This document shows positions 35,975 through 36,175 of a stretch of DNA of 64,000 nt, one piece after another. Positions within the stretch are counted from its first letter, which is position 1. Each line of letters starts with the position of its first letter. The translations under genes and the position numbers were made by a program. The notes under the pieces were generated by a model. The model was not told the DNA's origin and did not search any database. It was given only the letters and a program-made list of their open reading frames with translations. Origin of the DNA: Escherichia coli (GTDB lineage: Bacteria > Pseudomonadota > Gammaproteobacteria > Enterobacterales > Enterobacteriaceae); the NCBI RefSeq assembly GCF_044647545.1, contig NZ_CP172818.1. One strand, given 5' to 3'.

Positions 35975-36175
35975 TGCCGGATGCGCTTTGCTTATCCGGC
36001 CTACAAAATCGCAGCGTGTAGGCCTGATAAACTCGAAAATTTATCGGTCAAAATGCATACCGCGCTCGCATCAGGCGGTGAATGCCGGATGCGCTTTGCT
36101 TATCCGGCCTACAAAATCGCAGCGTGTAGGCCTGATAAGACGCGTCAGCGTCGCATCAGGCGTTACATACCTGAT
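35975..36175. repeat. REP/BIME cluster with a directly duplicated ~56-bp REP pair
   Basis: tgccggatgcgctttgcttatccggcctacaaaatcgcagcgtgtaggcctgataa occurs twice (about 35975 and 36084). Confidence 0.85.

Follow-up and report, generated by a model that had tools for sequence, protein, structure and literature searches.

The window, a 64,000-nt stretch of E. coli DNA, spans the carB to murF region and carries araD and araA on its minus strand. The araD coding sequence (L-ribulose-5-phosphate 4-epimerase, positions 35266–35961) is an open reading frame, and FDAARGOS_497 and K-12 both have araD annotated at the corresponding position; the gene lies downstream of the array described here in the araBAD transcript. 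The araA coding sequence (L-arabinose isomerase, 36184–37686), supported by both the reading frame and annotation, lies upstream of the array. The spacer between the two genes (35962–36183) is 222 bp long and runs from the araD start on one side to the araA stop on the other. It contains two units of an 85-bp type, the first of which is interrupted by a 35-nt sequence.

A repeat search of the window found that the spacer contains two copies of the 56-nt sequence TGCCGGATGCGCTTTGCTTATCCGGCCTACAAAATCGCAGCGTGTAGGCCTGATAA (35975–36030 and 36083–36138, plus strand). The copies are 100% identical, are in direct orientation and have a start-to-start distance of 108 nt. An exact repeat of this length cannot have arisen by chance, and the presence of a directly repeated 56-bp REP unit, as reported in the first-pass annotation made from the letters alone, is confirmed. 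Each copy consists, in order, of one base, a y-type REP formed by GCCGGATGCGCTTTGCTTATCCGGC followed by CTAC, the 13-nt linker AAAATCGCAGCGT, and GTAGGCCTGATAA, which carries GTAG and is the left arm of a z-type REP in inverted orientation. The y-type REP hairpins, which are iREPs on the plus strand, occupy positions 35976–36004 in unit 1 and 36084–36112 in unit 2.

The z-type REP of unit 2 (36126–36161, GTAG followed by GCCTGATAAGACGCGTCAGCGTCGCATCAGGC) is intact. That of unit 1 (36018–36076) is disrupted, as comparison with the 199-bp and 284-bp alleles described below shows: both of its arms, GTAGGCCTGATAA at 36018–36030 and TCGCATCAGGC at 36066–36076, are present, but they stand 35 nt apart instead of 12, with the 35-nt sequence between them. 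The spacer ends in a hairpin with the arms CGCATCAGG and CCTGATGCG (36152–36178; 9-bp stem, 9-nt loop), which was found in the repeat search and also forms in the RNA fold. This terminal hairpin lies 5 nt from the araA stop codon and has its left arm in common with the last z-type REP.

Classification and predicted RNA structure of the array

The feature is a tandem array of BIMEs (REP pairs) that is already known from the araBAD operon. A REP scan showed that its y-type and z-type elements fit the REP definition, which is an imperfect palindrome of about 25–35 nt with a conserved GTAG (CTAC on the other strand) at one end. The succession of an iREP, the 13-nt linker and a REP, which defines a BIME, is found in every unit of every allele that we compared. 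The array is extragenic, as no part of it extends beyond the araD start codon or the araA stop codon, and it belongs to a dispersed family: a query containing the array has a median of 9 matching places in each E. coli genome. Other REP pairs of the window are found at 3953–4035 and 8409–8490.

BIME-1 elements are single-copy and combine y and z1 REPs with a long L linker that carries an IHF site, and strict BIME-2 elements combine y and z2 REPs with an S linker and s, l or r flanks. The araD–araA array is not a BIME-1, because its units are tandem and its 13-nt linker lacks an IHF site: the linker does not fit WATCAANNNNTTR, which we take to be the IHF consensus, and is too short for an L motif. 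The y-type REP of the array is a recognisable short variant. With the BIME-2 and atypical BIME families of the Bachellier/Gilson classification, as outlined in PMC3333891, the array shares tandem copies, alternating REP orientation, a short linker and a strain-variable copy number. Its sequence would place it in either the BIME-2 or the atypical class, depending on whether its z-type REP is of the z1 or z2 type.

Hairpins formed by intercistronic REPs hold up 3′–5′ exonucleases and adjust how strongly the cistrons on either side are expressed relative to each other. By analogy, the REPs of this array would fold into stable hairpins between araA and araD on the araBAD mRNA, which corresponds to the minus strand of the window. 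The spacer RNA in this orientation folds at a calculated −98.2 kcal/mol, as compared to −74.8 ± 4.7 kcal/mol for shuffled sequences (z = −5.0), and the strength of the modelled fold agrees with what is established for intercistronic REPs, namely that they act as stable hairpins in mRNA.

The array also resembles naRNA4/REP325 (RF02564) in its REP-pair sequence and hairpins, so that one may ask whether it encodes a dedicated, HU-binding small RNA of this kind rather than being a generic intercistronic BIME. An Rfam search of the array returned sub-threshold naRNA4 matches only, which were located on the minus strand at 36129–36202 (35.7 bits) and 36021–36109 (31.8 bits). The gathering score of the family is 59.5 bits, which neither match comes near, and the array is not a member of this family. 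As any REP pair would show such a resemblance, and as the array sits inside the araBAD transcript, we regard a dedicated small RNA at this locus as very improbable.

Binding or cleavage by DNA gyrase, DNA polymerase I or TnpA-REP is a further trait of REPs and BIMEs. The araD-A BIME of MG1655 has been used, in the form of substrates named B315/B316, for TnpA-REP cleavage and strand transfer in vitro, as described by Ton-Hoang et al. 2012 (PMC3333891). The same paper states in general terms that the copy number of tandem BIMEs varies among strains (PMC3333891). The polymorphism and the type of the array are therefore already known, and the variation in copy number is ordinary.

Unit number of the array among E. 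coli genomes

The natural period of the array is 85 bp, which is the sum of the 56-nt core, the 12-nt z-type REP loop and 17 nt that comprise the right arm and a spacer. Within the head-to-tail array, each unit opens with a y-type REP, which the 13-nt linker joins to an inverted z-type REP; a spacer of 6 nt completes it. The 56 bp given as the unit in the first-pass annotation is therefore the length of the exact repeat; the true periodic unit is 85 nt, and in the window the second REP of unit 1 is disrupted.

Alleles of 114, 199, 284 and 369 bp differ from each other by exact 85-bp units and contain one (FDAARGOS_1266), two (FDAARGOS_497), three (XH993 and K-12 MG1655) and four (K-12 GM4792) units, respectively. 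This range of one to four units is that of a multi-copy tandem BIME, and the earlier description of the locus as a compound BIME is borne out by the comparison of alleles, as the number of units varies among strains. An allele of 168 bp, represented by W2-5, contains one unit and a BoxC-like element, which is a 54-bp G/C-block sequence adjoining the araD start. The two K-12 derivatives are unlike at the array: the spacer is 369 bp long in GM4792 (positions 763–1131 of the fetched locus) and 284 bp long in MG1655 (37552–37835), which reflects either an expansion on a laboratory timescale or an assembly difference.

The frequencies of these alleles were determined in a systematic sample of 59 complete E. 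coli genomes. The query consisted of the 300-bp coding flanks only, and the span of the match gave the spacer length. The 284-bp spacer was the most frequent (21 genomes), followed by the 168-bp (18), 199-bp (12) and 114-bp (8) spacers. A spacer of 222 bp was present in 0 of the 59 genomes of this sample. Furthermore, among the matches listed, all 60 of the 60 genomes with 100% identical flanks carry two units (199 bp).

Slipped-strand mispairing and unequal recombination between direct repeats are established routes of copy-number change. By analogy, either process would add or remove units by acting on the 85-bp direct repeats of the array, possibly with the help of TnpA-REP, the REP-associated transposase. 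The finding carries little biological weight: at this locus, the number of BIME copies is already in the literature as a strain marker that changes fast.

The K-12 MG1655 array is like that of the window in its location, its y-type and z-type REPs, its 13-nt linker and its 85-bp unit, and the 56-nt core of its unit 1 is identical to that of the window. It differs in having three units in 284 bp, whereas the window has two 56-nt cores and the orphan 35-nt sequence in 222 bp, and in a few point differences in the loops and spacers of the array. The 199-bp allele of the ST648-like clone (FDAARGOS_497, ECONIH1, IMT16316 and others) has flanks and sequence identical to those of the window except for one loop, which is the 12-nt GACGCGTCGGCG in the clone and the 35-mer in the window.

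Origin of the 35-nt sequence in the first unit

Compared with the 199-bp allele, the spacer of the window departs at the first z-type REP loop only, where the 12-nt GACGCGTCGGCG has given way to the 35-nt ACTCGAAAATTTATCGGTCAAAATGCATACCGCGC (36031–36065, plus strand). A length of 222 bp fits no rung of the 85-bp ladder because this 35-mer takes the place of 12 nt. A search of 5,426 complete E. coli genomes found nothing that matched the 35-mer, and neither did searches of the GTDB species genomes and the JGI metagenomes. A search for a donor in all collections, including plasmids and phages, returned chance matches only, with E-values of 3 or more. Two sources were considered and rejected: (i) local template switching, as the 35-mer has at most 11 consecutive nt in common with other parts of the window, which is about the chance expectation in 64 kb, and (ii) an insertion-sequence footprint, which is unsupported, as the 35-mer comes without terminal inverted repeats, a target duplication or plasmid or phage similarity.

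Judged by its sequence, the window hardly differs from ST648-like genomes, of which FDAARGOS_497 is an example. Over 64 kb the two match except for five point differences and four zones, one of which is the 35-mer. In the zone between folA and apaH (19571–19812), a thinned, A/C-rich sequence replaces the ccdA/ccdB toxin-antitoxin locus of the clone. Its longest common subsequence with ccdAB comprises 270 of 271 nt within 632 nt, as compared to 252 nt at most for shuffled sequences. The bases dropped are mostly G and T, and retention in the core of the zone is 61% for A, 43% for C, 20% for T and 11% for G. At the folA–apaH site, K-12 has a single REP.

The zone after the sgrS terminator and before leuD (47648–47683) is a pure subsequence of FDAARGOS_497 (61 of 61 nt) and shows pure drop-out, with 8 bases missing within about 45 nt. 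K-12 has setA where homology ends at this zone. The zone between thiB and sgrR (44962–45717) contains a core of about 590 nt (45128–45717) in which long A/G homopolymer runs stand instead of the espY2 effector gene of the clone. Base drop-out is progressive from 44962 and recovery at 45717 is abrupt; 80% of the bases of the zone are in a common subsequence with the reference. As the zone reaches the 3′ end of sgrR, the open reading frame at 45660–47390 gains a spurious C-terminus; an exact look-up of this altered sgrR product returned no record.

The window versions of the ccdAB and espY2 zones were found in no E. coli genome searched. The homology of the window to K-12 breaks at 19581/19833, 44967/45716 and 47660, which are the ccdAB, espY2 and sgrS zones, respectively. 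The window therefore contains local stretches of corrupted sequence in a backbone that is accurate elsewhere. Three of the four zones coincide exactly with DNA of the clone that is absent from K-12. This may point to a link between the corruption and structural differences from a template like K-12, as in a reference-guided consensus or gap fill. The cause may, speculatively, have been a low-quality gap fill, a reference-guided consensus or something else.

We compared the 35-mer with a 97-nt template: with one extra unit, the two intact 56-nt cores would be separated by a loop, the right arm and spacer, a further 56-nt core and a second loop. Taken in order, all 35 bases can be found in this 97-mer, of which the 35-mer is thus an exact subsequence. 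The same is true of 0.18% of shuffled 35-mers, and 0.86% of random genomic 97-mers contain the 35-mer in this way. We also modelled base drop-out at the retention rates of the independent ccdAB zone. For one extra unit, the model predicts that 29.8 nt are kept, and 35 nt are observed; for four units it predicts 56.5 nt, and a two-unit template cannot give the 35-mer. An equal or better score was obtained in 2 of 5000 shuffles and for 3 of 5488 genomic 97-mers. Retention in the 35-mer is 12/18 (67%) for A, 8/19 for T, 9/27 for C and 6/33 (18%) for G, so that A is kept most and G least in both the 35-mer and the ccdAB zone.

The template was picked after the resemblance had been seen, which makes these p-values post hoc; it is, at the same time, the sole natural candidate on the 85-bp ladder. 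The likelihood of the drop-out model (−46.5) is not better than that of an i.i.d. model that is given the composition of the 35-mer itself and lacks a length term (−47.5), and the case for drop-out therefore comes entirely from the permutation tests. The 35-mer is a subsequence of all three template variants tested, and clone-type and K-12-type templates are not told apart by it.

We favour, with a probability of about 0.7, the reading that the 35-mer is a thinned remnant of BIME-unit sequence and, as such, an artefact of sequence quality and not biology. The process at the 35-mer would be the same kind of local artefact as in the other three zones, of which the ccdAB and sgrS zones would represent pure base drop-out and the espY2 zone drop-out together with non-templated homopolymer runs. 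The real spacer would then probably be 199 bp (two units) or 284 bp (three units) long. Since the array has two units in all 60 genomes with identical flanks, the strain would have to owe a real third unit to a private duplication. Alternatively, the artefact may have come from reconciling a two-unit strain with a three-unit template, with no private third unit involved. What speaks against a thinned remnant is that a two-unit strain would need a net gain of 23 nt, whereas the other three zones all shrink, and that the 35-mer, in contrast to the worst of those zones, is not low-complexity.

The same net gain weighs against a second explanation, in which the 35-mer is insertion-type noise or a mis-joined gap fill over a real two-unit, 199-bp allele and its resemblance to the unit is coincidental. 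In its favour, REP arrays are places where assemblies typically break; the espY2 zone demonstrates that the corruption can yield non-templated bases, and the 60 closest genomes among the matches listed all have 199-bp spacers. It requires, however, that the exact subsequence relation and the matching retention profile both arose by chance (p between 0.0005 and 0.009), and we consider it unlikely.

We hold it to be rather unlikely that the 35-mer is a genuine private allele, that is, a real mutation in which one z-type REP loop was replaced with 35 nt of novel DNA. Possible sources of such an allele include the footprint of a REP-targeting mobile element (of the IS1397 or IS110 type), aberrant TnpA-REP strand transfer and repair filler DNA, and the change would weaken the affected REP hairpin. 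In favour of such an allele, neither the REP arms on either side of the 35-mer nor the two 56-nt copies show any damage, the junctions are clean, and the 35-mer is not low-complexity. REP loops and linkers are, furthermore, targets of insertion sequences and TnpA-REP cleavage according to PMC3333891. Against these points stand the lack of a donor or second copy in the 5,426 E. coli genomes, GTDB species genomes, metagenomes, plasmids and phages, the lack of terminal repeats or a target duplication, and the ordered-subsequence relation to the BIME unit, which one would not expect of foreign DNA (p about 0.002 or lower). The window is, in addition, otherwise almost clonal with 60 genomes that lack the 35-mer, and it contains demonstrably corrupted sequence elsewhere. 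That the 35-mer is, in particular, a strain-private REP-loop replacement on a near-clonal background, left as the footprint of REP-directed recombination or transposition by TnpA-REP or a REP-targeting insertion sequence, appears quite improbable to us.

If the 35-mer is a thinned remnant, as we think, findings that rest on 36031–36065 are as suspect as those that rest on 19571–19812, 44962–45717 or 47648–47683. The suspect kinds include odd composition, novel open reading frames, the absence of ccdAB or espY2, and the unusual length of the araD–araA spacer; the 222-bp length is unfit for use as a strain marker.

Intergenic length differences from K-12

The first-pass annotation had stated that the araD–araA, caiF–caiE and yabI–thiQ intergenic regions differ from those of K-12 by tens of base pairs, and attributed this to REP gain or loss. 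The lengths do differ by such amounts (−62, +33 and −32 bp, respectively). The attribution fits caiF–caiE, but neither of the other two regions.

In the araD–araA spacer (222 bp in the window, 284 bp in K-12 MG1655), the 62-bp difference is not a step of the 85-bp ladder and is due to the replacement of 12 nt with 35. Identical lengths in K-12 had been named as the outcome that would undo the claim. The lengths as read are not identical. If the 35-mer is what remains of a third unit, the real length would be 284 bp, which is the K-12 length, and the claim would be undone by that standard; if the strain is like its 60 closest relatives, the real length would be 199 bp.

The caiF–caiE region is 118 bp long in the window (3922–4039) and 85 bp in K-12 MG1655. 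The window has two intact REPs (3953–3984, followed by CTAC, and 4006–4035), and K-12 has one degenerate REP and a remnant, with 15 and 18 nt of the window sequence missing. On comparison of the two sequences, this difference is consistent with REP gain or loss.

At yabI–thiQ (about 81 bp in the window, 113 bp in K-12 MG1655), K-12 has a REP pair and the window is free of REPs. Instead, the window carries three G/C blocks, CCCCTCACCC, CCCTCTCCCC and GGGGCGAGGGGG, at 41465–41544, and this block element is found at a median of 15 places per E. coli genome. The BoxC/PIT family of intrastrand-triplex repeats is described in PMC4666352. With three consecutive purine- or pyrimidine-rich blocks and a dispersed distribution, the element agrees with the description of that family. 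The K-12 REP pair is thus replaced here by a BoxC/PIT-like triplex repeat, which is not a gain or loss of REP units. An element related to this repeat adjoins the araD start in the 168-bp allele (positions 373–426 of the fetched locus). The REP and BoxC/PIT-like families thus alternate at the same intergenic sites. In both the caiF–caiE and yabI–thiQ regions, the window is identical to FDAARGOS_497.

Length differences from K-12 are also found in the espY1 (yabP–yabQ) region, where K-12 has insertions of 29 nt and 13 nt relative to the window, at 28506 and 28638, both of them within the espY1 homologue. These insertions are consistent with a split yabP/yabQ pseudogene in K-12, as opposed to the intact espY1 annotated in the clone. 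Position 28636 is a single-base difference between the window and FDAARGOS_497.
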